Shown in pieces: positions 20,483-46,335 of a DNA stretch of 64,000 bases (position 1 is its first letter; each line of letters begins with the position of its first letter). Under the pieces are notes generated by a model. That model was not told where the DNA came from. It saw nothing but the letters and a program-made list of their open reading frames with translations, and ran no database searches. Source of the stretch: Takakia lepidozioides (taxonomy: Eukaryota; Plantae; Bryophyta); the NCBI GenBank assembly GCA_030704615.1, contig CM060732.1, positions 63,116,001 to 63,180,000 of the forward strand, read 5' to 3'. A program made the position numbers and the translations under genes.

Positions 20483-21608
20483 ATAAAGTACTAAGGGGAA
20501 ATCTTCTCCATACTTTTGTTGGAAATGTGGGGTATTGTCTAAGTGACATGATCGATGAACCAGATTTCTAGTTTGTGCATAGTCATGTCAATGCACAAGA
20601 TATGCAAGAAGGGCTAGACATATATTAAGTATGGAGCCGGTGTAGTTGCAAAAAATCGAGTTCGTCTTACACATCAGATTCTGCTTGATCGTGCACAGAT
20701 GTGGCGCAGGCATAAATTGCGGAGACAAATTGCTTCTATTTTTCCTATTGTGCTTTCACACATGTTCAATGAAATCCAAACAACTTTATCCGGCTGCGAG
20801 ATGGGTGGTCCTTTTTCGGAATAGTGGTGCGGACCAGTGTTAGCCGGGTATCATGTTTTGAGCCCTCTTCCGGTCCCGGTTATGGCCTATTATCTGAAAA
20901 AAATGGATGGCCGGGGCAGGGTATACCAATAGGTTTGAAAAACATCTCAGTTACAGATTCTCATTAAACATATAACCTTTTTTTTTGTCCGGTTCTCAAT
21001 CTACCAGTTATGCCATCTTACAAAATGCCGGTTCCATGGTATCGATGGGATTCATTCATTTTTGTTTTTTTGTTTTTTCTGGCATTTTTGTGTATCAATA
21101 TATGAAGCGAGATGTTTGTTTTGTTTGTTTGTAGCGTCGTTGAGATCTCCCAAACCGCGGGGCCCAGCCCCGGTGCTTGGTGCCTTTGGAAAGCCCTCGA
21201 TGAGGAGGGGTGCACCGGCTAGGTCTCATGATTTTTGGACCTACGGTGTGGGAGATGTGGAATTTCAAGTACTTTTGGTCGCTGGAAATTCGGGAAAAAT
21301 AGCAAAGTGGGCTTTCCTGGAGCAGTGATTGGTGGGAGATTTGGAATTTCAAGTACTTTTGGCCGAGCTGGAAATTCGCGAAAAATAGCAAAGTGGATAT
21401 ATCAATAGATTAGATTGCAAAAATAGCAAAGTGGGATTTGGGATTGCACTTGGACCTAGGTGACATTGGACACTGGAGGTCGCACTTGGGCCTCTACATA
21501 GGAGATTGCACTTGGGCTTAGATTTCCATTCTTCACACATGGACCAATGGCACAGGCTACCTAGATCTCCCAAAGAGTGGGGCTCTGGATACATAGGGGA
21601 TTGCACTT

Positions 21609-22306
21609 TGTCGTGCGCATACATATCGCTACACAACTACATCGCTGTCCAAAACCACACAACACATGTGCACACCACACACTAGTATACCACTAGTCTA
21701 CCACTAGTCCAGCCACTAGTCCAACCACTAGGCTACAACTAGTCAGTCACTAGGCTGCCACTACGCTGCCCACTATGGCAGTCACTAGTCCACACAATGA
21801 TAAAGAAGAGGAATACAAGCACAAGCTCACAAATCTGAAGCATAAACTCATGCATATATAACCTCATCACTCAAATACAAGTCAAGCCAAGTGCACCCCA
21901 CGCCATGGGGAATCCACACTACGGCGCCATAGCTAGGCGCGGTGAGGCTCAACTCGAGAAAGATGAGCCTCCCGCGCTTGCCGTGAAGATAACCACTCCA
22001 GGGCCTAAATCTGCCTTGACCCCTGGATTGACACTTGGGCCAATCCCAAATGTCAATATGTAAAAGCTAGCTATTTCCTAGCTAGTTTCACACTAGTGGT
22101 AAAATAACTTGACAGCTGTCGTGCGCATACATATCGCTACACAACTACATCGCTGTCCAAAACCACACAACACATGTGCACACCACACACTAGTATACCA
22201 CTAGTCCACCACTAGTCCAGCCACTAGTCCAACCACTAGGCTACAACTAGTCAGTCACTAGGCTGCCACTACGCTGCCCACTATGGCAGTCACTAGTCCA
22301 CACAAT
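21609..22306 (-). repeat. 3' repeat block of copy 1 (sense B1-GC-A2-B2)
   Basis: By eye the two B copies differ at ~1 position and the two A copies at ~1 position. B carries an ~11-bp periodic CCACTAG(T) array. Junction GACAGCTGTC at 22111-22120. Confidence 0.95.
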
Positions 22307-22316
22307 CGCCCCCCTA
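22307..22316 (-). promoter_or_regulatory. Polypurine tract (sense AGGGGGGCG) abutting repeat B1
   Basis: Plus strand CGCCCCCCT directly after B; same in copy 2 (~36608-36617) and copy 3 (~50197-50206). Confidence 0.75.
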
Positions 22317-22564
22317 GCTGGTGCTTAGGTCCCTCTAAGTCCAGGTAGCCACAAGATGTGATAGTGACCATAGCCTCACTAAGTCCTCCACCACTATCCC
22401 TACTACACTCAAACTCGATAGATCAAGAGGCCGGGTGCAAGAGTTGCCCCATCGTTAGTCGCCGTCTTGCAACCTGTGAACTTGAGCTTGGGATCTCATG
22501 TATTGACTCCTATGAGCTTGGCCTCCCATGTCTTGTTAGCTGCCTCCAGTCATGTCCACTGCCA

Positions 22565-22715
22565 CTATCCCAAGCAGTGTGGACACAACCAATCTCCGTC
22601 AGGAACCTTCTCAAGAGGTGGTGTCAAGCATCCCATATGCCAACCCCTTGAGCATCGATCACACACCAGCATGGTGGCTGCCCCTTTGGCAGACCCACAG
22701 AGCATGCACCTCAAA
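22565..22715 (-). other. PHD finger at the integrase C-terminus (copy 1)
   Basis: CMLCGSAKGAATMLVCDRCSRGWHMGCLTPPLEKVPDGDWLCPHC, C4HC3 spacing, in frame with the integrase core (ORF 22565-23650). Confidence 0.92.
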
Positions 22716-25700
22716 CCTGCAGGTACCACTGCCAAGTTTGGGTCAACTCTGCCATCGACATTGGGAAGGTGACATGGCGCACAATTACGCACATGGTCTT
22801 TCCAAGTCATGCCATCCCGACCCTCCAAGATCAGGACCCCTGAGGGCAACACCTCTCGAACCCTCAGAATAACACGCCCTGCAGTAACATCCAGAGTCGT
22901 AGGAGCAGTCTGCTGCAAATAAACATAGTCACCAGGGCTAAACCTCCGAACCCCAGGACGATATCCTCCACCACGTATAGTGGCATACCTCAACGTATCA
23001 CGGTGCTGTGCAATGGCAAGGTTCTCAAAAGCCATGGGCATGACTTTCTTGAACAACTCTGCACGCTGATCACATGCACGTACCCACACGTCCGGATCGT
23101 CAAGGTTAAGGACTTGAGCAGTGTCCCTACGAATGGCTGCAGGCAAATCCGGCTCTCGGCCAAAGAGAAGGAAATATGGTGAGAAGGAGGCAAGTGATGC
23201 TTGTTTGCTGAACCTGTAGCCCATGGCTAACCAAGGAACCTGAAGATCCCAATCTCCTAGGTGTCCCTTCTGCAAGCCATACTTGCGCAAACCCCTCTTC
23301 ACCGTCTGAACAACTCTCTCTGCTAAGCCATCGGCCTCAGGATGATCCCGAGAAGTGGTGCGGTGGTCTATCAAGGCTTTATCACACAAAGCCTGAAACT
23401 CCCCCAAAAACTCTCTCCCTTGGTCCGTGAGTACCTCAGCTGGAGCACCAAATCGGCTAAGCACACGATCCAAGAATGCATACGCAGCCCCCTCACTAGC
23501 CTTGTCAGGCAATGGAACCAACTCAATCCACTTGGAGAAGTGCTCCACCATCACCAACACATATCTGTGGTGGCGCATAGTCAGTGGCAACGGTCCTGCG
23601 AAGTCAAGACTCCACCTGTAGCCCAATCCCATGATAGGTAAAGGATGCAACTGTGGTGTAGGGCGTTGAATGAAGCACGCACCCTGTCACACACCATGCA
23701 CCTAGCCACAAAACTGTTGCACCTCTGTATGCATACCACGCCACCAATACTGCCCCTGCAGTAAACTGTGAGTGCGTCGCACTCCAAAATGCCCCAACTC
23801 CTCATGGGCATGCCGCACTAACCGTGCACGCTGTGTGGGGTGAGGCACAATCCTCACCCGACCATCCTCCCACACTCGAAGTAGGTGTATCCCCTCCCAC
23901 TTGAACCTCTTGGCTCGTTGCAGGATCCGATCCCTCTCCCTGGCAGTCACAATGGCTGCCGTGTCTCCCGTGCGGAGGTAGTCCAACACAGCCGAATCCT
24001 CATGTATATCTCTGGCACCACCTAGCTCATCACTAGCCTCAGGGTCCTCAGACACTCCGTCTACAGTCATCCCTGTTGTAGGTCCAATCTGACCTCCCGA
24101 TGCCACAAAATATGCATCCCGGGATCGACTCCAGTCGAATATGCTTTGCCTGTCATTCCATCCATGCATGGATTGCGCATCCCGATTGACCAAACCGGTC
24201 GATGCACAACCTGAAAGTCATACTCCTGGAGTATAAGTGCCCACCGTGCAAGCTTCCCCGTAAGCTTGTCTGACTCCATCAACCACTTGAGTGGCTGGTG
24301 ATCCGTGACAAGGGTGAAAAGATTGCCGTATAGATAGCACCTGAAGTGTGCCACGGCCCACACTGCAGCTAAGCACTCTCCCTCATATGAGCTGTACTTA
24401 GCCTCTGCAGCGTTGTTCGAGCGGCTAGCGTAAGCCACTACGAACTCTCTTCCCTCATCATCCCACCTGTGTGAGCACCGCTCCAAGCCCCAGCATGCTC
24501 CAATCCGTATGCAGCTGAAAGGGACGCCCCCTGATAGGTCGTCTCAAGATAGGCGCCGAGGTCAACCTCGCCTTGAGCTCTTGAAAAGCTCGTTCCTGCT
24601 CATCTTCCCACTGCCACTCTGGTCCACCTTGGTCAGCTTGGTTAGAGCCTTTGCAATGGTACTAAATCCCTTGACAAACCGTCTATAATAGTTTGCCAAC
24701 CCCATGAAAGCTCGAACTCGGCTCACATCCGTGGGGCGTGGAATTTGTGCAATGGCCTCTACCTTAGTCTGCTGTACCCCCAATCCTCCAGGATATATCA
24801 TGTGACCCAGATACTCAATCTGGTTGTGGAAAAACTTGCACTTCCCCGGATGCAACTTCAATCCGTGCGCTCTCAAGCGCTCCAATACCACCTGAAGGTG
24901 TCTCTCATGCTCCTCCATCGTAACACTAAAGATGATGATGTCATCTATGTAGCACCGAGCAAAGTCCACCCCTGCTAGAATCCTATCCATGACTCTCTGA
25001 AACTCTGCAGGAGCATTCTTAAGCCCAAATGGTAAGAACCGCCACTGATATAGGCAATCCTTGCCGTGCTCATTGATCCCCCAGAATGCCGTCTTCTGCT
25101 TGTCCGCCTCCTTGATTGGCAACTGGTGATATCCGGATCGTAAATCCAAAGTGCTAAAGGCCTTAGCATGCCCGATGGCATCAAAGATCTCCTCTGGTGT
25201 TGGCATGGCATACTTATCGGACTTGGTCTGACGATTTACAGGCCGGTAATCACCGCACATACGTCTCTCCGTCCAATTGCCATAGACATCCTTCTTGGCT
25301 GGCATCACTGTGGCTGAAGCATACTCTCCACCAGAGAGCTCCACCAAACCTGCCTCCCAGATCTTGAGTCCTCATCTGAATCAAAGACCTCTCCATGTCA
25401 CTGTATCTATAGGGTCTCCGAAAGATTGGCGTGTCAGTGGCCAACTCAATACGGATCTCTTGACCCTTCAGTGCTCCCAAGTCCTTCAAACTGAAGGCAA
25501 AGCAATTCCTGTAAGCCCTCAGGAACCGCCGTATACGTCGTCTCTCTCCTCCGGTGACAATGGGTCCAATGTCAGGCTCCCAATTGTCCTCCGTAACTAC
25601 AACCTTAAGTCCAGTGGGCTTAGAGGTAGAGGACGCGTCCCGTGGTTGCTATGCTGCAACCTCTTGAGCAGTACTCCCTGCCTGCTCAGTCAATGACAAG

Positions 25701-25969
25701 GCCTCATCCTGCCCCATCATCTCATCCTTGAGGACCTCCTCAACCGAGAAGAATCCCCAACCTCATCCATCACAGCCGCCTTGGCTGCCAACTCCCTCTG
25801 AACCTCGAGCACCTCCCACGTGTGCCATGGATGCATGCACCCCGTGGTCCTCATATGCTCGCCCCCACTCACTGCCTGTACCGTCTCGGTAGGCAGAGAG
25901 ACCATTGAGGGAAGTGTACTCCGCACTCTGCGTTGCTCAGCCAGAGCCAAGCTGATAATCCAGGTCAAG

Positions 25970-26900
25970 CAATTGAGATCCATTGCTTGCCCCAACACTT
26001 GACGACGTGATGCCTCAGAAAGAGACGACACCGCCGTGGTACCAGTGGTAAAACCCATTGCCCGCTCACGCTCGTCAGCATTAGGCTCCACTAACTGCTG
26101 CAACTGAGCATCCCACAGGAGGCCAGGTCCACTATCCCGGAAAGCATGCGATCCTGGGAAGCTGAGCAGTGTAGGTAATGCTGCTCGTGGTTGACCCACC
26201 TTGTTGACCACTGCCAAAGGCGAACGGTCATCGTGTCTCACACGTTGAGACTGCCTCCCTGTGTCCAGAATGTTATCCACTGTGAGATGTGCTGGCCGCT
26301 GCACCCCATCAATGCACGCTTGAGCAGTGCGGGTGGCATCAAGTTAGTCCACCATAGCCGTGGACGATGAGCCCGTGACCCCACTGTAGCTGCATCTAGC
26401 AACACTGCTGACCCAAGCCACGACCGGACTTGATGCACACTGGCCATCACCCTGGCCCGAGAATCGCCCATCAGTGGCACATTCTCCAAGATGTATGCTG
26501 GAGATACAGCTTGATGAAGCTGCAAGTGGCGCAAAACCCGCACCATCTCCCAAAACAGACCCGACCTCGAGTCTCGCAATCCATTGCCATGCCCGGCTGA
26601 TGAATGCCCTTGGCAGGGCCAACCTGCCACTACCAGATCAATGGAGCCAACCCGCTCCAAATCCGCGCCCCCAGCAACGAAATGTCTGCTGGCAAGGCCT
26701 GCTGATATCCACGAATTGCAGACACCGACAACAACTCAGGGTACCGCTGCACCAACTGAGCAACATGGCGAAGTGAAACGCGTCGTGCAGTCTCATCCCT
26801 CTCCACATACAGGTAACGCCGAACTCGTACACCTGCCTGTAACACAGCAGCCAATCCGGTGCTGATCCCGCCAAACAAGTCCAGAAGACAAATGCCTTCA
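25970..26900 (-). other. DNMT3-like C5-cytosine methyltransferase domain between protease and RT (copy 1)
   Basis: Motif I LLDLFGGI, II YLYVE, IV IDLVVAGWPCQG, VI YILENV, VIII AHRPRLWWTNL, IX ERAMGF, X RRQVLGQAM, in canonical order over ORFs 26630-27163, 26238-26660 and 25717-26304. Confidence 0.92.
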
Positions 26901-29799
26901 TCCGGATACTGCCACACAATAGGTGTGGTGTCCAATGGAGACAATTGAGGTGGTCCTGGTGCAATCCCCACACTCTCCTCCTCTCCTGACGGTACAAAAG
27001 CCTCCACCCAGGCTTGTTGCACCCGTCGATCAGCATCCCGCTGCAAATCCTTGCTCGTGCCCCACAATGGAGTCTGAGCAACCATGGTAGGCAACTCCGC
27101 CATACCATACATGTCATCCTGCTCTCCGAGGTGGTACATCCTCTGAATGAGCATTGCCCTCAAGCAACTCTCTAGGCCAACTCACTGCCGCTGTGAATGC
27201 TGCTAGTGTCGGCATCTTGCCTCGCTGGGCAACCGCAACTCCTCCTCCTATGAACGTCACAGGGAGCTGCACACGCCGGCCCTCCCCTGACTGCCATGCA
27301 GGCCTATAGGAAGCTGACTCCTCCCAAAAATCCAGGGTGAAGCCCATGGGGTACAACACTGCCCCACCAACCAGGACATCGTATGAGACTGCGTCTGTCA
27401 CAATGGCCTTGGCTCGCATCACTGAGCCATCTGTAGGGTGATCCGGCCGTAGTCTGATAGCCAACTCATGCCGTGTCATGCCCCGAGCCTGCTCCGATCC
27501 TCCCAGAGACGTCTGTATCTGGAAAGGACAAGGCTCCATATCCGCCTCCGTGAGGCCCAAGCCTGCAATAGCAGCTCTGCCACATCAGGGCTGAGCTCCG
27601 ATGAAGATCCCACTCAGAGTGTAGCTGCCAGCCTGAACACCTCAGCTGGTCTTACCCCCGGCGTCGCAATCATGGTAGCCGAGAACAATGGAGCCTGGCA
27701 CACAGATGTGGCCGCTCCTAGCAGCACACTAGCTGCCGTAGCCTTGGCAACACTAGGTAGTGGTGCTACCCGTGTAGCTCTCCCCAATGGCATAGTAACC
27801 TCCGCCTCGGTAACAGTCGGGCGAGAACTAGGTGCCATGGATGGCGTCGACACTGTCTCCGCCAATGTGAATGACTGAGGAAGCCTAGCCTGACGGCTTG
27901 CCTCCCCACGCTGTGGATCCAACTCCACCTCTGCACCTCGTGGCTCAGGAACTCGTGCTGCTCCTCGAGTCACGGCTGCAGCAGACTCCACCTGCACTAG
28001 TGGTAGTGCTGCTCCACACATGAATCCCATGCCTCCCATATCTCCTCCCTCAGGAGCAGGAGGTGGACCATCCGGCCTTAGAGCCGGTACCACCTGAGCT
28101 GTAGCCATGGCAGCGAGCCTCTGCTCTAGCTGCTGAAGCCGGTTGGCCATGCCTTGGTCAACACCCTGACCTCCGCGTCCTTGGCCACGTTGAGCTTGCC
28201 CTTGGCCTCGTGGCTGGCCACCTCGTCCTCTCTGGGCTGCTCCACCTCGCCCCCGGCCACCATTGTTCCCTTGGAACTGGCCTGGGCGCAACTCAGGATG
28301 CAAACCATAACACTGGGCCTCTCCATGCCCGTGCTTGCCACAATGCCCACACTGCAACTGTGCAGGCTGTGCATGTGCCGACCCTTTGCCTCCCTCTGGG
28401 CAATCCTTCTTGACATGGGGTCCTCCACATGTCCAGCACACCACATCCGCCCGTTGTTGGCCAGCAAATGAAGGGAGAGACCCCTGCATCTGAGGTCCTC
28501 TCTGCCCTTCCCTGAGCTTCACCTGAGCCCCCTTGTTGCCTTGAGCACGTTGAGGTAGTGGTTGGCTAGGAGCACCACTACCCCGTGGTGTCTCCTTAGC
28601 AAATCCCACCATGACCACTCGTTCCTCCACCATGTTGAGCTCTATCCGCTCTGCCAGCAAAACACATTTGCTAAGGTGGGTTGGGCCGCTTGTAGGAGAG
28701 TTGCATCCCGCACCCTTCTCCTCAGCTCCTTGTCCAATATCCCATACCAGAATTGGACTGCCTGAGCTTCCGTAACCCCTTGGGTTACATTTATCAAGCG
28801 CCTCATGCGAGTGAAAGCCTCCCTCAAGCTCTCGGTCGGCTTCCGTTGGAACTCTTGCAAGCTCCGCAACTTCTCTGTCCTCACCCCTTGGTAGTTCCCT
28901 CTCAACTCTTCGAAGAACTCCACAACAGGGTTGAAGGCAGGCACGGGTGCTAGTGCTGGTGCGTAGTGGCTTGGGTGGACGTCGCTACGTATACTGTACC
29001 ACCAGTCCCACTGCTACTTGCTGAAGCTGCCGGTGCAGCGGCAGGTGTAGCCACTGCCCTCGTGGCTCTAGTGCCCCTAGTGATGGAGACATAGTCGGGT
29101 GACCAGTACATCCTCCACTCCTCGATCTCAACCTCATGCCCCCGCCTGAACTCATGGTAATCATCCATAGGCGGCCCTCAAGGTGCTGAAACAGCCCTTT
29201 CCATGCCATGAACGGCGTAAATAGTTGTGGATTGCGCATTTGCTGCAAATCACACCAACTATCAACTCTTGGATAAAATCATCCAACTCGATGGTGCCCA
29301 CCGCCCCAGAGTACCTTCGTGGCCCCTTGGTAGCTCCATACATCTCCTCCATTGTGTCCCACAACAATGGCAAAGAACAACTTGCACCGCCGGTATGAGT
29401 CCTCCTGATTCACAATCCGACAGAACCTTCCGTAGAAGACACAGGAGGTGAAGGTGGCCTAAACCGCACACCTCGTCTCGTGTACCCACTAGTATCGCTA
29501 GTGCTCGAACCGGCACTGTCCCCAGCAACTAGTGGCACCTCCGTGTTGACACTCAACCGGTCATGAACATGTCCCTAACCCCCTCTCCACAAGGTAACCG
29601 GGTAGAGAACCTGTTGCGGCTTATGGTTTGGAATACTAAGTTCCGCCTAACATAGCCTACACCTGAACTTGCATGACCATGGGAATATCATGAAGATACT
29701 CCTCAAACCTCCACGAGCTTCAAAATTCGGCCTTCCAGACCACATGCCAGTCCTTAGTCCACCAGTGCCTCCACGAGTCAGCAGGCCATCCACAGGTGG

Positions 29800-30290
29800 C
29801 CCACACAGCTCACTGGTCACAGCCGTCACAGTCATTTTGGTTTCTGTTCACATTTGGCCTTCAACAACATTGATTTTTCTGTCACAGGTTCCTAACAACA
29901 TGTCACAGGGCACACACACACACAGCCCTCCCACATTCACACAGTCACAGCATGGCCACAGGCAGCCTCACAGCAGGCCAAAGGCCAGCAACAGTTCACA
30001 CACACACACAGCCTGTGCCTCCACAGGCCTTCAACAGCCTGTCCAACAGGGGCACCCTGTCACAGCCCCTCACAGCCCATCCACAGCCTCACACACAGCA
30101 GTCACACACACATACACAACAACATCCACATTCACAGCACCCTTCTTCACAGCCTGTTCCTCACAGTCACATCTCCAACAGGTCACAGCCTGGCAGCCTG
30201 TCACACAGCCCGTAGCATCAGTCACAGCCCATCACAGATCAACACATCACAGCCACCTGGAACAGCCTCACAGCCCCACACATGGCCTCT
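29800..30290. repeat. Degenerate TCACAGCC-type short repeat array in the 5' leader of copy 1
   Basis: Many (G)TCACAG(CC) units; expanded counterpart at ~58150-58750 in copy 3. Confidence 0.75.
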
Positions 30291-31787
30291 GGCAGTTTAG
30301 CCATTTCTCCAAGGGGTTTAGCCACGCCAAGCTAGGGTTTGTGTCTCTTGGACTCTAGGCTTCTTTCCACCGAGCTATGGTGGCTGTGAGGAAATCAGCA
30401 AGGTATCTTCTCTTTCGGCTCCCACACACCACCATAGTAGCCCTAAGCCATGAGGTGGTTGCCACAAACCAAGCCTTCTTTCTCACTTAGCCTCCCCAAA
30501 CACGCCACTAAACTCAATGGCAAACAACCAAGCCCTGCTGGTTCCCAGCCCTTGTGAGCACTCATTCAAGCACTCTCTTGGCCATAGCATCTGTCTTAGA
30601 GCCTATTCCAGCCCCTACACCTGTTGCTTCAAGAGTTGCGCTCCCTTCAAGCTTGAAGTTGAAACCCCAACTCACATAGGCCCTACAAGTGCTTTTCTTT
30701 CACTCCAAGTGGAAACCAGCCCTAGACCTTCCGTTCTAGCTCTCTAAGCTTGAAAACAAGAGCCTCAATGGGCTGAAGGCATGCTCCACACATGCCCCAC
30801 TCTCACCATAAGAGAATCAGCTCCTTTGCTTCATTTCTTGCACCCACAAACCTGAAATACAAGCTTCAGCAGGCTGAAAGCATGCTCCACATGCCCTACA
30901 GGGAAACCAGCCCCTTCCTTCCTTTCTTGCACTCCCACACCTGAAAGTGCAAGCCTTCACCAGGCTGATAGCATGCTCCACACATGCATTGCCCTCACAT
31001 AAGGGAAGTCAGCCCTTCCCTCTTCCTTGCTTGCCCTCCAAGCTTGAAGATGGAAGCTTCAATGAGCTGAATACATGCTCCACACATGCAACCTCTTCAC
31101 ACAAGAGATATCAGCCCCCTATCTTGGCTCCTTGGCTCCTTGATGCTCTCTAAGACAAGACTAAGCACTCCACAGCCTTTGCCAAGCTCCTGAAACCCTA
31201 AGGCTTACATTTCCAGCCACAAGACACTTCTCTTGTGGTGCAAGAGCTCTTCTTCCAAGCTCTGAAACCCTAGGTGCACATTCCATGGCCTTGCCGCACC
31301 TCTTAGCTCCTGTTCCAGCCCTGCTCTTGCCATGACAAGAGCCCTCTCAATGCTGAAGCTCGAGATTGAAACCCAATCTCACCATACTCCACAAAGTGCA
31401 CTGATTTGCCCCAAGCCAAATCAGCCCTTTCGCTTGGTCTTGCAATCCTTCACACAATGAAAGCTCGCATTCCCAAGTCCAGTTCTCAGCTTTGCCACCA
31501 AAGCCACTATAACCTGCTCTTGACTGGTCCTCTTCCCAATCGTGCTTGCTCATGCATGTACACAATCTGAAACCATCAAGGTGCTCTGGAATTACCTGCA
31601 GCATGGTGCTTTCATCTCTGAAGCTGAAGATCGAATGCCAAGGTCTACCACCTCGTAACCCACATCGCCTCCGCTTCTAACAACAAGAGCTCCACGGTGC
31701 TCCTTGCATAACAACTTGGTTTCTCTCATTCTCAAGCAAAAACCACAAGTGCTACAACTAACTCGTATCTGGCACTCACAGATACGA

Positions 31788-31804
31788 GCTGATCTTTCTC
31801 GAGT
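31788..31804 (-). promoter_or_regulatory. Non-tRNA primer-binding site complementary to the element's own repeat A
   Basis: Sense (A)CTCGAGAAAGAT(C/G)AGC directly after A1; reverse complement at 31958-31974 inside A1. One mismatch here, perfect in copies 2 and 3. Confidence 0.75.
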
Positions 31805-34254
31805 GATAAAGAAGAAGAATACAAGCACAAGCTCACAAATCTGAAGCATAAACTCATGCATATATAACCTCATCACTCAAATACAAGTCAAGCCAAGTGC
31901 ACCCCACGCCATGGGGAATCCACACTACGGCGCCATAGCTAGGCGCGGTGAGGCTCAACTCGAGAAAGATGAGCCTCCCGCGCTTGCCGTGAAGATAACC
32001 ACTCCAGGGCCTAAATCTGCCTTGACCCCTGGATTGACACTTGGGCCAATCCCAAATGTCAATATGTAAAAGCTAGCTATTTCCTAGCTAGTTTCACACT
32101 AGTGGTAAAATAACTTGACAACTTGGAGATAGATGCCATTGGACACTTGGGCCAAAGACACAGGCTACACTAGAGGTCGCACGCCTCGACATAGAAGACG
32201 CACTGGGATACATAGGGGATTGCACTTGGGCTTAGATGACACTGGACACTTGGGCCAACGACATAGGCTACCCTAGTGTGTGTAAAACTACACAAGAGGG
32301 GTGTGGCCTCGTGGTAAGCCACTCGTGTATTGGCCTTTGGGTCTCGGGTTCAAATGTTCAAACCCTATCATCCATCTCTCTACCTTTAGGCTGGGGCCTG
32401 TGCCCGTTTAATACACTAAGCTTACAACTGTGTTTTAGCCAAATGCCCAACTAATCAATTTTCTATTTACTTAGACATTCTCAATGTTGTGCACCTAATT
32501 TCCTTGTAAACGTATTGTTACTAGTAAGACATTACATTCCACTCACGATCTGTCCATCTGTACTAATGTTCTTAACTAGGTCATCACCAACCCCTACTAC
32601 ACATGTATTATCTAGAACCGCCTCTACACCATCCACATTTGCTCCACATCTCGCTCCGCGTATACACCCCTTACAATAACAATGTCGATTCTCTAGCCGG
32701 TTAGCAAGCTCAATGGCCTTTGCCGGTTCCCTTCCATAGCCGGTTCCCCGCGGGCTGCACTTTCCGGTTATGCATATGTGCATAACCAGCAAATAACTGC
32801 TCAATATGTATGTCCAGATCTCATACCCAGTTAACATTGGTGTGGACTTTCAAAGATCCGAATTGATCTGGAAACTCATGATTATGCCACATGATTTGCA
32901 AATGTCAAATATTACTCGGATCTTCTATGAAGTCTCCACTCCAACATTGCGCCTATAGAAATTGCGGCAGGATGAACTAGTTCATGAATTACAAATTGTA
33001 CCAAATTCCTTTGCTTCGAGTCAATGCCAAATGATGCAGCACATGGAGTTCCAGCCCAATTTTCATATCCTTGGTAAGCAACAGATCTAGTCACGGTCAA
33101 ACGGTCTAATTTTCTTCTTGTACGCATACATAGGCTGAACGAAGTGACTATTTGGAACAGTTCGTACATTCTTTTAATTATTAACAATAAAACTTGTATT
33201 ACTTATAAATTTACGTTTCTTATCATTCTACAATTTATTAATTGAAACGTTCACATTGCCTCGATAAGTACCCGTAAGGTTAATAAAGGTCCCAAATTTT
33301 TATCTCTACACATGGCCCCACACATCAGCCAAATCCTACACTCCTTACCACCCCTTCCCAATTGGGTACTCCATTGCTTTCCCATTTTATGACCTTCATA
33401 AGAACCGTTTGTGGTGGGGAGGTGGGCCCTTCTTCGAGAGCTCTCCCACCTATGTATATACAAGAGGTCCCCTTACTTTCTTATTGAGCTCCGCCAAGAG
33501 CCGAGCTTGAGCTAGAGGTTTGGTGGGCTTTGGCTATGCGTAGACCCGCTAGGAAACTAAAAAGTGAATAGGAATTATCACTCAATCAATAGAAATCTCA
33601 ATAAGTAGTTGAGATTGCCAATATTAAAGGCAAAAAGGATATATTCTAAGATACTAAGATACTCTAGTTTACAAGGTTTAAAGCCCAAGCAAAGAGCCCA
33701 AACTAGCATGGTAACTCGAGTTTGAGCCATTTGTGTGATTCATTTGTCTAGTTGTGATAGGTGATAGGTGTTTTATTATTATTATTATTATTACTGAATT
33801 AATAAAGAAATGGAATGGAGCCCAGATGATAGGCAAGTTTTTTTTTTTTCATTTTTCCAGAAGAAGAAGAAGAAGAAGAAGACTTTGGCCGAAACCGGCA
33901 TAACTTATAAGAGCCACTTCGTCTCATGGCTATAATGCCCATGTGGCGAGAAAAACGAGGCGACAAGGTAAGAAAAGTGGCTATATTCCAGGTGTCACAT
34001 TTTAACCGGTCCACATTGTCCAAATTAGGCTCATAATATTCAATTGTGGCACTTTTTGGCAAAAAAAATGGATATTACCCCCCATTCATTCAGAAATTAA
34101 TCACAATCCATAAGTAATTCATGAATGTAGCTTCAAGATGGAAGAGATGGAGGTCATTGTAGTCATCATAAAATCATAGCAAACTAAAATATCTCTGTAG
34201 AATATATAGATAATAGAGTTATCCGTTAAGTCCAAGGGATGGAAGGTGAGTTAA

Positions 34255-35967: not shown

Positions 35968-38900
35968 TGTCGTGTGCATACATATCGCTACACAACTACA
36001 TCGCTGTCCAAAACCACACAACACACACTAGTATACCACTAGTCCATCACTAGTCCAACCATTAGTCCAACCACTAGGCTGCCACTATACTGCCCACTGT
36101 GGCAGTCACTAGTCCACCACAATGATAAAGAAGAAGAATACAAGCACACAAGCTCTCTCAAACTCACACACTTGCACATGAAAACATCACTCATATATTA
36201 AGTCGAGCCAAGTGCACCCCACGGCATGGGGAATCCACACTACGACGCCATAGCTAGGCGCGGTGAGGCTCAATTCGAGAAAGATGAGCCTCCTCGCGCT
36301 TGCCGTGAAGATAACCACTCCAGGGCCTAAATCTGCCTTGACCCCTGGATTGACATTTGGGCCCATCCCAAATGTCAATATGTAAAAGCTAGCTATTTTC
36401 TAGCTAGTTTCACACTAGTGGTGAAATAACTTGACAGCTGTCGTGCGCATACATATCGCTACACACCTACATCGTTGTCCAAAACCACATAACACATGTG
36501 CACACCACATACTAGTATACCACTAGTCCATCACTAGTCCAACCACTAATCCAACCACTAGGCTACCACTATGCTGCCCACTATGGCAGTCACTAGTCCA
36601 CCACAATCGCCCCCCTAGCTGGTGCTTAGGTCCCTCTAAGTCCAGGTAGCCACAAGATGCGATAGTGACCGTAGCATCATTAAGTCCTCCACCACTGTCT
36701 CTACTACAGTCAAACTCGATAGATCAAGAGACCGGGTACAAGAGTTGCCCCATCGTTAGTCGCTGTCTTGCAACCTGTGAACTTGAGCCTGGGATCTCGT
36801 GTATTGACTCCTATGAGCTTGGCTGCTTGTTAGTTGCCACTGGTCATATCCACTGCCACTATCTCAAGCAGTGTGGATATAACCAATCTCCATCAGGAAC
36901 CTTCTCAAGAGGTGATATCAAGCATCACATGTGCCAACCTCTTGAGCATCGATCACATACCAGCATAGTGGCTGCCCCTTTGGCAGACCCACACAACATG
37001 CACCTCAAACCTGCAGGTACCACTGCCAAGTTTGGGTCAATCCTGCCATCGACATTGGGAAGGTGACATGACGCACAATTATGCACATGATCTTTCCAAG
37101 TCATGCCATCCCGACCCTCCAAGAACAAGACTCTTAAGGGCAACACCTCTCGAACCCTCAGAATAATACACCCTGCAGTCACATCCAAGGTCGTAGGAGC
37201 AGTCTGCTGTAAATAAACATAGTCCCCAGGGTGGAACCTCCAACCCAGGATGATATCCTCCATCACGTATAGTGGTATACCTCAACGTATCACGGTGTTG
37301 TGCAATGGCAAGGTTCTCAAAAGCCATGGGCTTGACTTTCTTGAACAACTGTGCACGCTGATCACATGCACGTACCCACACGTCCAGATCGTCAAGGTTA
37401 AGGACTTGAGTAGTGTCCCTACGAATGGTTGTAGGCAAATTCGGCTCTCGGCTAAAGAGAAGGAAATATGGTGAGAAGAAGGCAAATGATGCTTGCTTGC
37501 TGAACCTGTAGCCCATAGCTAACCAAGGTACCTGAAGATCCCAATCTCTTAGGTGTCTCTTCTGCAAGCCATACTTGCGCAAACCCCTCTTCACCGTCTG
37601 AACAACTCTCTCTGCCAAGCCATCAGCCTTAGGATGATCCCGAGAAATGGTGCGGTGGTCTATCAAGGCTTTATCACACAAAGCCTGAAACTCCCCCAAG
37701 AACTCTCTCTCTTGGTCCGTGAGTACCTCAGCTGGAGCACCGAATCGGCTAAGTACACGATCCAAGAATGCATACGCAGCCCCCTCACTAGCCTTGTCAG
37801 GCAATGGAACCAACTCAGTCCACTTGGAGAAGTGCTCCACCATCATCAACACATATTTGTGGTGGCACATCGTCAGTGGCAACGGTCGTGCAAAGTCAAG
37901 ACTCCATCTGTAGCCTAATCCTATGATCGGTAAAGGATGCAACTGGGGTGTAGGGGCATTGAATAAAGCATGCACCCTGTCACACACCATGCACCTAGCC
38001 ACGAACTGTTGCACCTATGTGTGCATACCACGCCACCAATACTGCCCCTGCAATAGACTCCAAAATGCCCCAACTCCTCATGGGTATGCCGCACTAACCG
38101 TGCACGCTGAGTTGGGTGAGGCACAATCCTCACCCGACCATCCCTCCACACTCGGAGCATGTGTATCCCCTCCCACTTAAACTTCTTGGCTCGTTCCAGG
38201 ATCCGATCCCTCGCAGTCACAGTGGCTACCGTGTCTCCAATACGGAGGTAGTCCAACACAGCCGAATCCTCATGTATATCTCTGGCACCACCTGGCTCGT
38301 CACTAGCCTCAGGGTCCTCAGACACTCTGCTACAGTCATCCCTGTTGTAGGCCCAATCTAGCCTCCCGCTCCCAAGATACACAGAAATGTAGATGCGTGC
38401 CATCCCGGAACCATTTCCTCGTCCGTCTCACCATGCCACCGCGCTCCAGTGTCATCCTGCTGGCTCGTGCATGGATTGCGACTCAATCCATCCGCATCCC
38501 GATTGACCAAACCCGGTCGATGCACAATCTGAAAGTCATACTCTTGGAGTATGAGTGCCCACCGTGCAAGCTTCCCTGTAAGCTTGTCTAACTCCATCAA
38601 CCACTTGAGTGGCTGGTGATTCGTAACAAGGGTGAAGAGATTGCCGTATAGATAGCACCGGAAGTGTGCCACGGCCCACACTGCAGCTAATGACTCTCCC
38701 TCATATGAGCTATACTTAGCCTCTGCAACGTTGTTCAAGCGGCTAGCATAAGCCACTACGAACTCTCTTCCCTCATCATCTATCTGTGTGAGCACCGCTC
38801 CAATCCGTATGCAGCTGAAAGGAACACCCCCTGATAGGTCGTCTCAAGATGGGCGTCAAGGTCAATCTCGCCTTGAGCTCTTGAAAAGCTCGTTCTTGCT

Positions 38901-41900
38901 CATCTTCCCACTAGTGCCAGTCCTAGTCCATCTTGGTCAGCTTGGTTAGAGCCTTTGCAATGGCACTAAATCCCTTGACAAACCGTCTATAATAGTTTGC
39001 TAACCCCATGAAAGCTCGAACTCGGCTCACATCCGTGGGGCGTGGAATTTGTGCAATGGCCTCTACCTTAGTTTGTTGTACCCCCAATCCTCCAGGATAT
39101 ATCATGTGACCCATATACTCAATCTGGTTGTGGAAAATTTTGTACTTCCCCGGATGCAATTTCAATCCGTGCGCTCTCAAGCGCTCAAATACCACCTGAA
39201 GGTGTCTCTCATGCTCCTCCACTGTAGCACTGAAGATGATGATGTCATCTATGTAGCACTGAGTGTGGTCGGGTTCCTTTAATAGATTGTCTCACTTTGA
39301 GGAGACTGGCTTGCAGTTCATCGATGTGCAGAAAGGCATATTGAACAAGGTTATTCGTTTCCTCCTGGTGGAGCATTTAAATTGTCACTCAACATTTCAA
39401 GTGGTTAAATAAATAAAAAATCAAAATCAGGTACACGTCTCTCTGCATACTCAACCATTCCTTCATTGCAGGGAGTAAGGCAAGCTGTGGGACTACGCTG
39501 AAGTGAATGATAGTCATCTAATAGCTCACCTCTATTGCGGTGGTGTGCTTCATGTCCAGAAAAGTTTCGTGGTCTTATGCAAGCCTCATGCACACACACA
39601 ATCTCCCTCTCTATGTCTTAGAACGCTCTTTCACGACTAGACCATGTGATTTGTAAGGAAAACTCCTCAAGAGGTTGCAACATAGCAACCACTGGACGCG
39701 TCCTCTACCTCTAAGCCTGATGGACTTAAGGTTGCAGTCACGGAGGATAATTGGGAGCCAGATATTGGATCCATTGTTACCGGAGGAGAGAGACGACTTA
39801 TACGGCGGTTCCTGAGGGCTTACATGAATTGCTTTGCCTTCAGTTTGAAGGACTTGGGAGCACTGAAGGGTCAAGAGATTCGTATTGAGTTGGCCATTGA
39901 CACGCCAATCTTTCGGAGACCCTATAGATACAGTGATATGGAGAGGTCTTTGATTCAGATGAGGACTCAAGATCTCTGGGAGGCTAGTTTGGTGGAGCTC
40001 TCTGGTGGAGAGTATGCTTCAGCCACAGTGATGCTAGCTAAGAAGGATGTCTATGACAATTGGATGGAGAGACGTATGTGCGGTGATTACCGGCCTGTAA
40101 ATCGTCAGACCAAGTCCGATAAGTATGCCATGCCCACACCATAGGAGATTTTCGATGCCATTGGGCATGCCAAGGTCTTTAGCACTTTGGATTTGCGATC
40201 CGGATATCACCAGTTGCCAATCAAGGAGGCGGACAAGCAGAAGACGACATTCTGGGGGATCAATGAGCACGGGAATGATTGCATATATCAGTGGCGGTTC
40301 TTATCATTCGGGCTTAAGAATGCTCCTGCAGAGTTCCAGATAGTCATGGATAGGATTCTAGCAGGGGTGGAGTTTGCTGAACTTAGAGTCATTATACTCC
40401 ATTACGTTTTTTTTACTAGACTCAATCACAGTTTGATTACTGTTAGACTACTATGCTCCCTGATGGTCAGAATCTCCACTAAATCAACACTCCCACTGCT
40501 GGTACAGATTGTGGAAACTCAGCCCAAAATTGCCTTCAGGTTACAAGATTTGAGTGCTAATTATGTGATTCCTTGGCAGGTGCTCCAGCCCCGAATAAGG
40601 GACATGAGGCCGGGATTGCACAATGACACGGCCTCATCTTGCCCTATCATCCCATCCTTGAGGCCTTCCTCAACCCGAGAAAAATCCTCAACCTCATCCA
40701 TCACCGCCACCTTGGCTGCCAACTCCCTCTGAACCTCAAGCACCTCCCACGCGTGCCATGGATGTCTGCACCCCGTGGTCCTCACATGCTCGCCCCTACT
40801 CGTTGCCTGTACCGTCTCGGTAGGCAGGGAAACCGTCAAGGGAAGTGTGGTGACTGAAGATAACTGTAGTCTACGCTGCTTAGCCATACTCAGGCTGATG
40901 ATTCAGGTCAAGCAATTGAGATCCATTGCTTGCCCCAACACCTGACGACGTGATGCCTCTGAAAGAGATGGCACCGCCGTGGTACCAGTGGTAAAACCCA
41001 TTGTCCGCTCATGCTCGTTAGCATTAGGCTCCACTAACTGCTGCAACTAAGCATTCCACAGGAGGCCAGGTCCACTATCCCGGAAAGCTTGTGATCCTGG
41101 GAAGCTGAACAATGTAGGTAGTGCTGCTCGTGGTTGACCCACTTTGTTGACCACTGCCAAACGCGAACGGTCATCGTGTCTCACACGCTGAGACTGCCTC
41201 CTTGTGTCCAAGATGCTATCCACTGTTAGGTGTGTTGGCCGCTGTACCCCATCAAATTTACGCTTAAGCAGTACTAGTAGCATCAAGTTGGTCCACCATA
41301 ACCGTGGACGATGAGCCCGTGACCCCACTGTAGCTGTATCCAGCAACACTGCTGACCCAAGCCACGACCGGACTTGATGCACACTAGCCATCACCCTGGC
41401 CCGAGTATCACCTAGTAGTGGCACATTCTCCAAGATATAAGCTGGAGACACAGCTTGATAAAGCTGTAGATGACGCCAAACCCGCACTATCTTTCAAAAC
41501 AGACCCGACCTCGAGTCTCGCAATCCATTGCCATGCCCGGTTGATGAATGCTCTTGGCAAAGCCAACCTGCCACTACCAAGTGGATGGGGCCAACCCGCT
41601 CCAAATTTTGCGCCCCCAGCAAGGAAATGTTTGCTGGTAATGCTTGTTGGTATCCACAAACTACAGACATCGGCAACAATTCAGGGTACTGCTGTACCAA
41701 CTGAGCATGGCATAGTGAGACGCGTCATGCAGCCTCATCCTTCTCCACATACAAGTATCTCTGAACCCGTATACCTGCTTGTAGCACAACAGCCAATCCA
41801 GTGCTGATCCCGCCAAACAAGTCCAGAAGACAAATGCCTTCACTCTGGTACTGCCACACAATAGGTGTGGTGTCCATTGGTGACAACTGAGGTAGTCGTG

Positions 41901-44900
41901 GTGCAATCCCCGCACTCTCCTCCTCTACAGATGGTACAAAAGCCTCGACCCAGGCTTGTTGCACCTGCCGATCCGCAGCCCACTGCAAATCTTTGCTCGT
42001 GCCCCACAATGGAGTGTGAGCAACCATGCAAGCAGACAACTCTGCCATACCATGCATGCCATATGGCTTCTCCGGAGTGGCACATCCTCCATGTGAACAT
42101 TGCCCTCCAACAACTATCCAGGCCAAGTCACTGCAGCTGTGAAGGCTGCTAGTATCGGCATCTTGCTCCGCAGGGCCGCAGCAACATCTCCAATGAATGT
42201 CATAGGGAGTTGCATACGCCAGCCATTCCCAAACTGCCATCCAGGCCTATAGGAGGCTGTCTCCTACCAAAAATCCAGGGTGAAGCCCATGGGGTACAAC
42301 ACTGCCCCACCAACTAGGACATCATAAGAGACCGCGTCTGTCACAATGGCCTTGGCTCGCATCACTGAGCCATCTATAGGGTGATCCGGCCGTAGTCTGA
42401 TAACCACGCGTGTCATGCACCGAGCCTGCTCTGATCCTCCCAAAGATGTCTGTATCTGGAAAGGACAAGCCTCCATATCTGCCTACGTGAGGCCTAAGCC
42501 TGCAATAGCAGCTCTGCCAAACATCAACAGCTGAGCTCCCGAGTCCAACAATACCCACAGTGGCCGGTACCTCTTGCCTGGCGGTCCACTCAAACAGAAA
42601 ATACCCTCCTAGTTGTCTAACAATACAACCCCAGGTGTCACCATGGCGCGCTCAATGGCTGGCTTAGCTGGCAGTTCCATCAACCTGGCAGCTGCAGCTT
42701 GCCATGGCGCCGCCGTGGCAGTCTTGACCCTCAAGTCCGAGGATCCTTCCACCACTACACCTTCCACTATCTCCGCAGAAGATGAAGTGACCTCCCCACT
42801 CTCACGGAGTGTCGCTGCCAGTCTAAACACTACAGCAGGTCTTACCCCCGGCGTCGCAATCATGGTGGCCGAGAACAATGGAGCCCGACACACAGATATG
42901 GCCACCCCCAACAGCACACTAGTTGTCGTAGCCTTGGCAGCAGGTAGTGGTACTGCCCGTGTGGCTCTTCCCAATGGCACAGTGACCTCAATCTCGGTAT
43001 CAGTTGGGCGAGAACTAGGTGCCATAAATGGCGTCGACACGGTCTCCGCTAAGGTGAATGACGGAGGCAGCCTAGCCTGATGACTTGCCTCCCCATGCTA
43101 TGGATCCAACTCCACCTTTGCACCTCGTTTTTCAGGAACTTGTGCTGCTCCTCGAGTCACAGCCGCAACAGACTCTACCTGCACTAGTGGTAGTGCTGCC
43201 CCGCAGATGAATCCCATGTCTCCCATATTTCCTCTTTCAGGAACAGGAGGTGGACCCTCAGGCCTTTGAGCTGGTACCACATGGGCTGTGGCCATGGCAG
43301 CAAGCCTCTACTCTAGCTGTTGAAGCCGGTTGGCCATGCCATGGTCAACACCCTGACCTCTACGTCCCTGGCCATGCTGAGCTTGCCCTTGGCCTGCACC
43401 TCGTGCCTGACCACCTCGGCCTCTCTGAGCTGCTCCACCTCGCCCCCAGCCACCATTGTTCTGTTGGAATTGGTCTAGCCGCAGCTCAGGATGCAAGTCA
43501 TAACATTGGGCTTCTCCATGCCCATACTTGTCACAATGCCCACACTGCAACTGTGTAGGCTATGCCTGTGCTGAATCTTTGCCTCCCTCTGGGCAATTCT
43601 TCTTGACATGGGGTCCTTCACATGTCCAATACACCACCTTTGCCCGTTGTTGGCCTGCAAATGAAGGGAGAGACCCCTTCATCTGAGGTCTTCTTTGTCA
43701 TTTCCTGGGCTTTGTCTGAGCCCCCTTGTTGCCTTGAGCACGTTGGGGTAGTAGTTGGCTAGGAGCACCACTACCCCGTGGTGTCTCCTTAGCAAATCCT
43801 ACCATGACCACTCGTTCCTCCACCATGTTGAGTTCTATTCGCTCTGCCAGCAAAAATACATTTGTTAAGGTGGGTTGGGCCACTTGTAGGAGAGTTGCAT
43901 CCCGCACCCTTCTCCTCAGTTCCTTGTCCAATATCCCATACCAAAATTGGACTGCCTGAGCTTCCGTAACCCCTTGGGTTACATTTATCAAGCGCCTCAT
44001 CCGAGTAATAGCCTCCCTCAAGCTCTCAGTAGGCTTCCATTGGAACTCTTGCAAGATCCACAACTTCTGTGTCCTCACCCCTTGGTAGTTCCCTCTCAAC
44101 TCTTCGAAGAACTCTACAATAGGGTTGAAGGCAGGCACGGGTACTGGTGCTGGTGCGGTAGTGGCTCGGGTGGACGTCGTAGCTGCGGTACCACTAGTCT
44201 CACTAGTCCCACCGCTGCTTGTTGAAGCTGCCGATGCAGTTGCAGGTGTAGCCACTGCCCTCGTGGCTCTAGTGCCCCCTCGTGATGGAGACATAGTCGG
44301 GTGACCAGTATATCCTCCACACCTCGATCTCAACCTCATGCCCCCGCCTAAAACTCATGGTAATCATCCATGGGCGGCCCCTCAAGGTGTTGAAATAGCC
44401 CCTTCCATTCCATGAAAGATAAACAGTTCTGGATTGCGCATTTGCTGCAAGTCACACCAACTATCAAACTCTTGGATAAAATCGTCCAACTCAATGGTGC
44501 CCACTGCTCCAGAGTACCTACGTGGCCCCTTAGTAGTTCCATACATCTCCTCCATTGTATCCCACAACAATGGCAAGGAAACAACTTGCATCGTCGGCGT
44601 GAACCCTCCCTATTCAAAGTCTGAATCAGAACCTTCCTTGGAAGACACAGGAGGTGAAGGTGGCCTAAACCGCACACCTCGTCTCGTGTACCCACTAGTA
44701 TCGTTAGTGCTCAAACCGGCACTCTTCCCAGCAACTAGTGGCACCTCCGTGTTGACAAACTGACACTCAACCGGTCATGAACATGTCCCTAATCCCCTTT
44801 CCACAAGGTAGCCGGGTAGAGAACCCGTTGCAGCTTATAGTTTGGAATACTAGGTTCCTAACACAGCCTGCACCTACATCCACCGCAAGCACTCCTATGG

Positions 44901-46335
44901 TTGGCTGGTCATCACCTCCAACCTCACCAGAGGAAAAACAATGATGGTCTGACTGGTCATCACCCCAGCCTCACCATCGACAGCATGCTCTAGAACTGGT
45001 CGGTGATCAAATCCGGACCAATCACCTATAAAAGCAAGCGCCCACACAAAACTAACATGGTGCACAATCAAGCATGTAGGTGTGGAGGGGATCCAAACAC
45101 AAGAAATCAGAACGACAACTCCCCCACACTAAAAACAATTCCACGGTGTCGCGAAGCTTCCATCTTCAAGCTTGGAGGGCAAGCAAGAAAGATGGATTGG
45201 CTGATTTCTCTTATGGGGGGAGTAGTGCTTGTGTTGAGCATGTATTCAGCCAGCATGTATTCAGCCTGGCTGAATGCATGCTCTACACATGCAACCCCTT
45301 CACACAAGAGGTATCAGCCCCCTATCTTGGCTCCTTGGCTCCTTGTGCTCTCTAAAACAAGACCAAGCACCCTAGCGTTTGCCAAGCTCATGAAACCCTA
45401 AGGTCTATATTTCCAGCCACAAGACACTCCCCTTGTGATGCATGAGCTCCTCTTCCAAGCTCTGAAACCCTAGGTGCACATTCCATGGCCTTGCCGCACC
45501 TCTTAGCTCCTGTTCCAGCCATGTTCTTGCCATGGCAAGAGCCCTCTCAATGTTGAAGCTTGAGATTGAAACCGAATCTCAACATACTCCACCAAGTGCA
45601 TTGATTTGCCCCAAAACCAAATCAGCCCTCTCGCTTGATTTTTTACTCTTCCACACCATGGAAGCTCGTATTCCCAAGGCTAGTTCTCAGATTCGCTGCC
45701 TGAGCCACTATAACCTGCTCTTGTTCAGCCTCATATGCTCATGACTGATCCTCTTCCCACTCGTGCTCACCGCACACAATCTGAAACCATCAAGGTGCTC
45801 TGGAATTACCTACAGCACGGTGCATTCATCTCTGAAGCTGAAGATCGAATACCAAGCCGGTTCACCTACTTGTACCCAACATCGCCTCCGCTTCTAAGAA
45901 CCACGATCTTGATGATGCTCCTCGCATCCCAACCTAATTTCTCTCATTCTCAAGCAAAAACCACAAGTGCTACAACTAACTCGTATCTGGCACTAATAGA
46001 TACGAGCTCATCTTTCTCGAGTGATAAAGAAGAAAAATACAAGCACACAAGCTCTCTCAAACTCACACACTTGCACATGAAAACATCACTCATATATTAA
46101 GTCGAGCCAAGTGCACCCCACGCCATGGGGAATCCACACTACGGCGCCATAGCTAGGCGTGGTGAGGCTCAACTCGAGAAAGATGAGCCTCCCCGCGCTT
46201 GCCGTGAAGATAACCACTCCAGGGCCTAAATCTGCCTTGACCCCTGGATTGACACTTGGGCCAATCCCAAATGTCAATATGTAAAAACTAGCTATTTCCT
46301 AGCTAGTTTCATACTAGTGGTGAAATAACTTGACA
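35968..46335 (-). mobile_element. DNMT3-carrying Gypsy-type retrotransposon copy 2 (more decayed), split direct repeats, TSD TTCA
   Basis: TTCA at 35964-35967 and 46336-46339. A at 46022-46335 and 36123-36436; B at 36439-36607 and 35968-36123; junction GACAGCTGTC at 36433-36442. Many stops; DNMT motif IV reads WLCQ. Confidence 0.93.
39666..40378 (+). other. Inverted RT segment within copy 2, flanked by unrelated filler DNA
   Basis: Plus-strand ORFs 39824-40144 and 40187-40732 encode the RT N-terminus that is on the minus strand in copies 1 and 3. Confidence 0.9.

Follow-up and report, generated by a model that had tools for sequence, protein, structure and literature searches.

The window, i.e. 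the whole 64-kb stretch of Takakia lepidozioides DNA that was analysed, contains three Ty3/Gypsy copies, all on the minus strand and in one orientation within 40 kb. The domain order of the element is Gag-PR-DNMT-RT-RH-IN-PHD. Its parts, given in detail for copy 1, are the following.

21609..32120, minus strand: copy 1, Gypsy-DNMT3 element of 10,512 bp; layout A1...PPT-B1-GC-A2-B2; TG...CA ends; target-site duplication AAGT at 32121-32124 and 21605-21608
31804..32120, minus strand: copy 1 repeat A1, likely the proximal U3-R-U5; one mismatch against A2 over 317 bases
31792..31803, minus strand: copy 1 PBS, complementary to 31959-31970 within A1; self-priming predicted
28300..29352, minus strand: copy 1 Gag-like region with a CCHC knuckle and several frameshifts
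27130..27620, minus strand: copy 1 aspartic protease (PR) region; a deletion near 27615 has removed its start and with it the active-site motif
25942..26902, minus strand: copy 1 DNMT3-like C5 cytosine methyltransferase (DNMT) domain; motifs I-X in unpermuted order; reading frame shifted at about 26664 and about 26311
25643..25651, minus strand: copy 1 conserved in-frame stop codon (TAG) and the six bases after it (CAA CCA); closes the Gag-PR-DNMT ORF and fits the UAG-CARYYA readthrough consensus
24100..25648, minus strand: copy 1 RT and RNase H (PF00078, PF17917), frameshifted
22565..24050, minus strand: copy 1 DDE integrase (PF17921, PF00665) with D-D-E motifs and a C-terminal PHD finger
22708-22574, minus strand: PHD finger ending the copy 1 integrase (PF00628, 6.5e-11)
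22306..22319, minus strand: copy 1 polypurine tract (PPT), immediately preceding B1
21609..22305, minus strand: copy 1 3' repeat block; B1 22305-22117, GC spacer 22116-22115, A2 22114-21798, B2 21797-21609
35968..46335, minus strand: copy 2, of an older sub-family; layout A...B-GC-A-B; target-site duplication TGAA; DNMT at 41844-40882; stop region lost
50007..60558, minus strand: copy 3, showing just the A...B layout, at target site TACA/TACC; DNMT, internally deleted, at about 54560-53870; TAG CAA CCA at 53586

The protease active-site motif was kept in copy 3, and the match to PF13650 was weak (E=0.0085). In copy 2 the RT region (39263-40621) carries a 717-bp inversion at 39662-40378 with unrelated inserts on either side. 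The 5' leader of copy 1 (29352-31791, minus strand) measures about 2.4 kb, against about 1.2 kb in metagenome loci, and includes degenerate tandem repeats of about 100 bp (30711-31118) and GT-rich simple repeats; a strong hairpin lies 3' of the PBS in the element's leader. Copies 1 and 2 are flanked by one family of small repeats (32123-32277 and 46336-46468; 21095-21332 and 35502-35739) that are about 84% alike. Together with the single orientation of the copies, these shared flanks possibly reflect a target preference.

The window also holds a WDR44-like multi-exon host gene (5902-14469, minus strand), for which mosses gave the top scores. Over the aligned exons its identity, determined for 15 chosen proteins, was 62% to Sphagnum and 47-53% to Physcomitrium and Ceratodon, whereas liverworts, ferns and seed plants scored lower than mosses (42-48%). 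None of the Sphagnum, Physcomitrium and Ceratodon proteins that were compared is a close match. Judged by this gene, the host appears to be a land plant and most likely a moss. Fragments of a non-LTR (LINE-like) RT were present at 1-1750 and 9110-9748 (minus strand), one of them inside an intron of the WD40 gene.

An earlier reading of this DNA, made from the sequence only, had placed C5-methyltransferase motifs between the protease and the RT of copy 1, in an order not permuted as in DRM. Motifs I-X were indeed found at this position in unpermuted order, with DLFGG (I), YVERD (II), GWPCQ (IV; catalytic Cys codon at 26615-26613), ILENV (VI), AHRPRLWWTNL (VIII), ERERAMGF (IX) and RRQVLGQAMD (X), and the permuted order of DRM is absent from the domain. 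A profile search matched PF00145 at 26238-26735 (E=3.1e-13; score 50.3 bits, cut-off 22). The natural homologue P0002, which is 72-82% identical to the window pieces, had DNMT3A as its best PDB sequence match (6e-12), followed by DRM-type chains (1e-8 to 2e-4) and HhaI (4e-3), and the best fold match of its predicted model (pLDDT 73.5) was DNMT3A/B. The resemblance to DNMT3 that had been proposed is borne out by these matches, and the unpermuted domain is almost certainly DNMT3-like. Residues like R836, R882 and D876 of DNMT3A are absent from the bryophyte domain. DNMT3A is no guide to the sequence context in which the element's enzyme would methylate. In the ESM Atlas only PF00145 clusters were encountered, one of them 100% eukaryote and mostly Streptophyta. 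The domain is intronless and fused to Gag-protease, and DUF3444 gave zero matches in the scanned window pieces. The host DNMT3 of non-flowering plants, as far as described in the text available of PMC6453930, likewise has an unpermuted catalytic domain; it differs in its C-terminal DUF3444 and its exons.

Among 37 homologues, 13 were from Marchantia polymorpha, 3 from Calypogeia fissa and 1 from Sphagnum troendelagicum. Names of vascular plants, Physcomitrium and Ceratodon did not occur among the homologue matches, which is weak evidence of absence. A metagenome scan yielded 134 related stretches, of which 80 were kept, and these show Gag-PR-DNMT-RT-RH-IN-PHD wherever flanks exist; viral contigs contained no relatives of P0010 or P0034. 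On this sequence evidence the family occurs widely in bryophytes (mosses and liverworts) and is not special to the Takakia lepidozioides genome. A profile search returned 556 representatives at E<=1e-30. The domain was present in 149 of the best 150 of these; it followed RT/RNase H in 69 and was preceded by a protease in 17. The chlorophyte Hariotina reticulata has the order RT-RH-DNMT-IN-PHD, with DNMT between RNase H and integrase, and a Closterium member has DNMT upstream of RT. A large algal-type clade (P0229-P0241, P0265-P0411) shows RT-RH-DNMT-IN-PHD as well. Of the motif IV sequences scored among the best 150 representatives, 66 have EC and 38 have PC. One protein, P0243 (3794 aa), in which a related DNMT domain is accompanied by PF12237, RT and RNase H (PF00075), gave no match to a DDE integrase; it may represent another class of retroelement, one that has two methyltransferases.

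Quick trees placed the window copies in a bryophyte clade, with an SH-aLRT of 98 for DNMT and of 99 for RT, the latter having Closterium as sister (100); both were built without host DNMT3 and Klebsormidium, and the Closterium branch in the DNMT tree is long and unsure. Either the DNMT has moved to another position during the history of one green-plant Gypsy lineage or it was captured twice, and the trees do not decide between the two. In both trees the Marchantia and Sphagnum-like elements grouped together with the window element outside, a pattern that may reflect either old paralogous lineages or transfer between bryophytes.

The domain had also been claimed for copies 2 and 3. It is present in both, but the extent of its breakage had been understated. 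Copy 2 keeps a single frame with 4 stops and has lost the catalytic-loop proline of motif IV (PC to LC), and in copy 3 there are 2 frameshifts and 2 stops, and motifs VI and VIII are lost in a deletion of about 270 bp. In copy 1 the domain is broken by its two frameshifts and has zero stops. The enzyme cannot be produced by any of the three window copies. Over the 80 related loci the catalytic residues were nearly invariant: F of motif I in 75/77, E of motif II in 72/77, P and C of motif IV in 75/79 and 78/79, E of motif VI in 78/80 and G of motif X in 70/71. The exceptions are arginine codons decayed at CpG.

In the comparison across copies that had been suggested with the first reading, the dN/dS of the DNMT was 0.31 for copy 1 against copy 2 (329 codons; binomial p=1e-7), a value inflated by decay; the other domains of the same pair gave 0.24-0.47. 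Against 69 metagenome loci pS was about 0.74, i.e. saturated, with a pN of 0.21, and between hosts dS was saturated with a dN of 0.22-0.31. In close pairs pN/pS was near 1 (0.97 where pS<0.1; 0.77 for copy 1 against copy 3) because of decay after insertion. These substitution patterns indicate that the DNMT is under purifying selection. A DNMT that was captured once and is now a neutral passenger would account for three broken window copies and for the finding that only 3 of 69 near-full related loci are free of stops and frameshifts. The low ratio between the sub-families, the saturation of synonymous sites between hosts and the similar decay of RT argue against such a passenger, which is highly improbable.

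The first reading had further described a multi-copy, recently active land-plant family. The land-plant host agrees with the WDR44-like gene and recent activity is supported by the terminal repeats, which differ at 2 of 506 bases in copy 1 (11 of 314 between the A repeats of copy 2); as a description of the family it was too narrow, with members in Marchantia, Calypogeia and Sphagnum as well. Common exact words had a depth of 20,250-25,000, against 47-92 for most of the long divergent pieces (runs X2 and X4), which suggests at least some hundreds of copies, although contig depth is no copy number. Copy 1 carries about a dozen frameshifts. An assembly error as the cause of the one at 26311 was rejected, exact contig words crossing it at multi-copy depth (33-97, where common words have 250-575; run X1); these words have fewer than 31 letters per side, which is below the bridging bar. 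No listed contig piece spans the frameshift at 26664. A defective sub-lineage was thus probably copied in trans, which implies that a copy can spread without a DNMT, RT or integrase of its own.

In the first reading the DNMT was embedded in the polyprotein. It does lie between protease and RT in the same frame, but a family-wide in-frame stop precedes the RT. The stop is TAG CAA CCA at 25651 in copy 1 and at 53586 in copy 3, and the RT carries on in that frame; in copy 1 a further frameshift lies past motif X and ahead of the stop, and in copy 2 the DNMT frame leads into the peptide preceding the stop. The DNMT-RT linker was 426 nt long, and therefore in frame, in 35 of 51 measured related loci. 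This linker length supersedes a first frame test on the best tblastn segments, which was noisy (one frame throughout in 15/50; DNMT and RT in the same frame in 25/51). At linker codon 81 a stop was found in 34 of the 35 in-frame loci (24 TAG and 10 TAA; the remaining one TAC, and none CAG or CAA) and in 28 of 29 distinct insertions once duplicates had been removed. The stop fraction at other columns reached at most 0.28 over 322 DNMT columns and 0.33 over 220 RT columns. In the top four other stop-bearing columns of each domain the commonest codon was CGA, CAG, CAA or CGG, and the stops in these columns are products of decay. The annotated proteins end accordingly: five Marchantia proteins of 1278-1281 aa consist of Gag-CCHC-PR-DNMT and finish 97 aa past motif X, the C-terminus of Calypogeia P0007 lies 99 aa past it, and many homologues terminate 95-99 residues past it. 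DNMT and RT occur in one protein in three representatives, one of them Closterium, so not all members have the stop.

The six bases 3' of the stop are CAA CCA in copies 1 and 3 and in locus L034, an exact match to UAG-CAR-YYA, which is the readthrough consensus of the TMV type in the part of the source available (PMC3542737). The available text on Tj1/Tosmo likewise describes an in-frame stop that holds Pol below Gag (bioRxiv 10.1101/2022.12.06.519325), located between Gag and protease, whereas in the window element it comes after protease and DNMT. The stop after the DNMT is likely leaky and read through into RT-RH-IN-PHD. The DNMT would then likely be produced as abundantly as Gag, and RT and integrase in a fraction of that amount, by readthrough only. 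It is improbable that the stop is a true terminator, with RT-IN coming from a message that is spliced or re-initiated and the DNMT still at Gag level. In the large metagenome sub-family the six bases are CAA CCC in 30 of 35 loci, one base off the consensus, and an ATG follows two codons past the stop, so re-initiation is possible there; the Marchantia gene models P0004, P0013, P0028 and P0032 moreover join DNMT with RT, a fusion that may stem from gene prediction skirting the stop or from genuine splicing. Termination does not explain why the frame is preserved across the stop in the in-frame linkers, nor does it suit copies 1, 3 and L034, where the full CARYYA context occurs without such an ATG (none directly follows the stop in copies 1 and 3).

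The ends of the element are split. Copies 1 and 2 read A...PPT-B-GC-A-B and copy 3 reads A...PPT-B, and all start with TG and end with CA. Exact 4-bp target duplications flank two window copies out of three, and 6 of 9 testable related loci have them too. Among the related loci the long split-repeat form was found in 4 (L041, L060, L065 and L066) and the short A...B form in 6. The spacer between B1 and A2 was 2 nt in 6/6 cases, inside the palindrome ACA-GC-TGT. The A2-B2 junction was clean in 5/6 and contained filler and a PPT remnant in 1/6, which can fit end-joined circles. From PPT to PBS, the reverse transcription layout predicts an LTR of B-GC-A, of which the inserted form is a circular permutation. 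No tyrosine recombinase was matched among the 22 ORFs scanned, and the PF00665 integrase is present. The accessible part of PMC1180852 reports that foamy virus integrase cleaves palindromic circle junctions; that cut is at the junction itself, whereas the site deduced for the window element is elsewhere, at the internal CA-GC-TG. Integration probably proceeds via circular cDNA, with the integrase cutting internal CA-GC-TG. The A...B copies can also be explained by recombination between B1 and B2.

The PBS pairs with A in all three window copies, over 12 nt in copy 1 and 16 nt in copies 2 and 3 (MFE z=-6.0). In 8 of 15 scored loci (15 of 19 were scored) the PBS has other letters and pairs at a like fixed site 29-33 nt past the TATA, and in the other 7 the match at that site is missing. 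Tf1-like self-priming is likely, the RNA start being deduced from TATA spacing only. The PHD finger at the end of the integrase is nearest to those of CHD4, KDM5 PHD1, PHF12 and ATXR5. These fingers are readers of unmodified H3 tails.

A life cycle may be proposed from these features. Transcription would begin inside A, and the 5' end of the RNA would pair with the PBS and prime its own reverse transcription. The plus strand, started from the PPT, would yield a linear cDNA with B-GC-A as LTR, whose ends would join (the A/B junction) into 2-LTR or 1-LTR circles. The DDE integrase would cleave the two strands of the internal palindrome CA^GC/TG to give CA-3' ends, and insertion with a 4-bp stagger would produce A...B-GC-A-B or A...B. 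The DNMT would enter the particle in roughly the amount of the capsid protein and be released there by the protease, and the cDNA would be methylated in the particle, co-packaged defective genomes included. The PHD finger would likely target insertion to chromatin whose H3K4 is unmodified. The element would probably gain in that its new copies arrive pre-marked and resemble host chromatin. We regard the whole chain, from a Gag-PR-DNMT ORF with readthrough to a packaged DNMT that methylates the cDNA before integration, as evenly poised between true and false, and favour it over the readings below. The multiplication of a defective sub-lineage fits action in trans. Counted against cDNA methylation are the yeast test of the Klebsormidium relative, negative but inconclusive to its authors, as given in the text available of PMC5890265, and a CG level equal to that of host exons: CG observed/expected was 0.48-0.53 in the element and 0.45-0.48 in host exons, so that no footprint of self-methylation, i.e. 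CG loss beyond the host-exon level, was detected in the element. Transitions were raised at CG and CHG alike, as expected from host silencing.

Two other roles for the enzyme have to be weighed. A DNMT made at Gag level could act in trans on host chromatin, the insertion site or rival elements instead of the packaged cDNA. Its position before the stop yields far more enzyme than one cDNA needs, the integrase bears a chromatin-reading PHD finger, and copies with a frameshifted DNMT still multiplied. The fusion to Gag, however, favours packaging, and in chlorophyte-type relatives the DNMT is at Pol level between RNase H and integrase (69/149 of the best 150 representatives), which fits a cDNA-linked job; action on the host thus seems unlikely. 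Alternatively, the domain might be non-catalytic or a decoy, which binds the cDNA, or binds and dampens host de novo methyltransferases, and so averts silencing. This would agree with the yeast result for the algal relative, at least as the consulted part of PMC5890265 gives it, with the CG level and with the loss of the DNMT3A DNA-contact residues; the SAM-binding and catalytic residues are, however, kept across mosses, liverworts and algae, and we consider such a role distinctly unlikely. Returning to cDNA methylation, a wider scenario is offered tentatively and is on balance doubtful: an old green-plant Gypsy lineage, extending from chlorophytes to bryophytes and integrating through palindrome-cut circles, of which the bryophyte branch put the DNMT before a leaky stop, so that about one DNMT per capsid protein is made and pre-methylated DNA is delivered.

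The closest known system is KnitGypsy-Dnmt3 of Klebsormidium nitens, compared here by its description in the available text and not by sequence (PMC5890265). That description comprises Gypsy domains, a DNMT3-like domain, DIRS-like repeats and a Ka/Ks < 0.2. Both elements share the DDE-integrase set PR-RT-RH-IN, an intronless unpermuted DNMT3-like domain and DIRS-like split direct repeats; for selection, the ratio of 0.31 between copies 1 and 2, raised by decay, lies above the Klebsormidium value. They differ in host, an alga against a land plant, and in the place of the DNMT, which in KnitGypsy-Dnmt3 is in the RT/RNase H ORF, whereas in the moss family a stop separates the two in the same frame (34/35 linkers, copies 1 and 3). 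A PHD finger, self-priming, a target duplication and an integration route do not appear in that available text; the window element has the finger and the duplications. The Klebsormidium retro-DNMT did not methylate yeast DNA, a result that its authors called inconclusive, and SymbioDIRS-Dnmt3 of Symbiodinium gave de novo CG methylation in yeast (PMC5890265, same part). The latter also is a DNMT3 domain borne by a retrotransposon; it belongs, according to that text, to a DIRS element with a tyrosine recombinase and an independent capture, whereas the window element has a DDE integrase and 4-bp duplications.

PAT and Ngaro are families of split-direct-repeat retrotransposons. The layout A...B-A-B is described for this type in the available portions of PMC8557442 and PMC5890265, and the window element shares with it these ends and a likely circular intermediate. 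The PAT/Ngaro type uses a tyrosine recombinase, whereas the window element encodes none, and a DDE integrase is suggested by its TG...CA ends and 4-bp duplication. With Tf1/sushi it has in common a PBS, here predicted to self-prime, and it carries a PHD finger where elements of that type have a chromodomain, according to the text at hand (bioRxiv 10.1101/2022.12.06.519325). A land-plant or chlorophyte description was not found in the literature covered, the scope of which excluded subscription journals, theses, Repbase and the figures of PMC5890265; the domain order or copies from land plants may be on record already in those figures or their supplements, or in the uncovered literature. Beyond PMC5890265, the literature covered on land-plant copies and on split-repeat Gypsy elements yielded only two later papers, which, in the parts available, mention 'streptophytes' only (PMC12344493; bioRxiv 10.64898/2026.05.21.726589). 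The window family extends a published algal oddity to mosses and liverworts, as a variant of it.

DNA methylation is the main weapon of the plant against transposons, and why one of these carries the enzyme has been asked since 2018. The known hosts of retro-DNMTs are hard to work with, whereas Marchantia has genetics and methylation mutants, and in Marchantia uninterrupted Gag-PR-DNMT ORFs are annotated as hypothetical genes. If the proposal is true, self-methylation by a transposon becomes directly testable in a model land plant, Marchantia polymorpha. The conserved stop predicts the enzyme dose, and the end structure predicts circle-based integration, which is unusual for DDE integrases. 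Bryophyte DNMT counts and methylome readings may include transposon enzymes. Four of the homologues (P0205, P0206, P0207 and P0210) are Mp_Vg genes on the V chromosome of Marchantia, and two of these are uninterrupted ORFs of 1281 aa.
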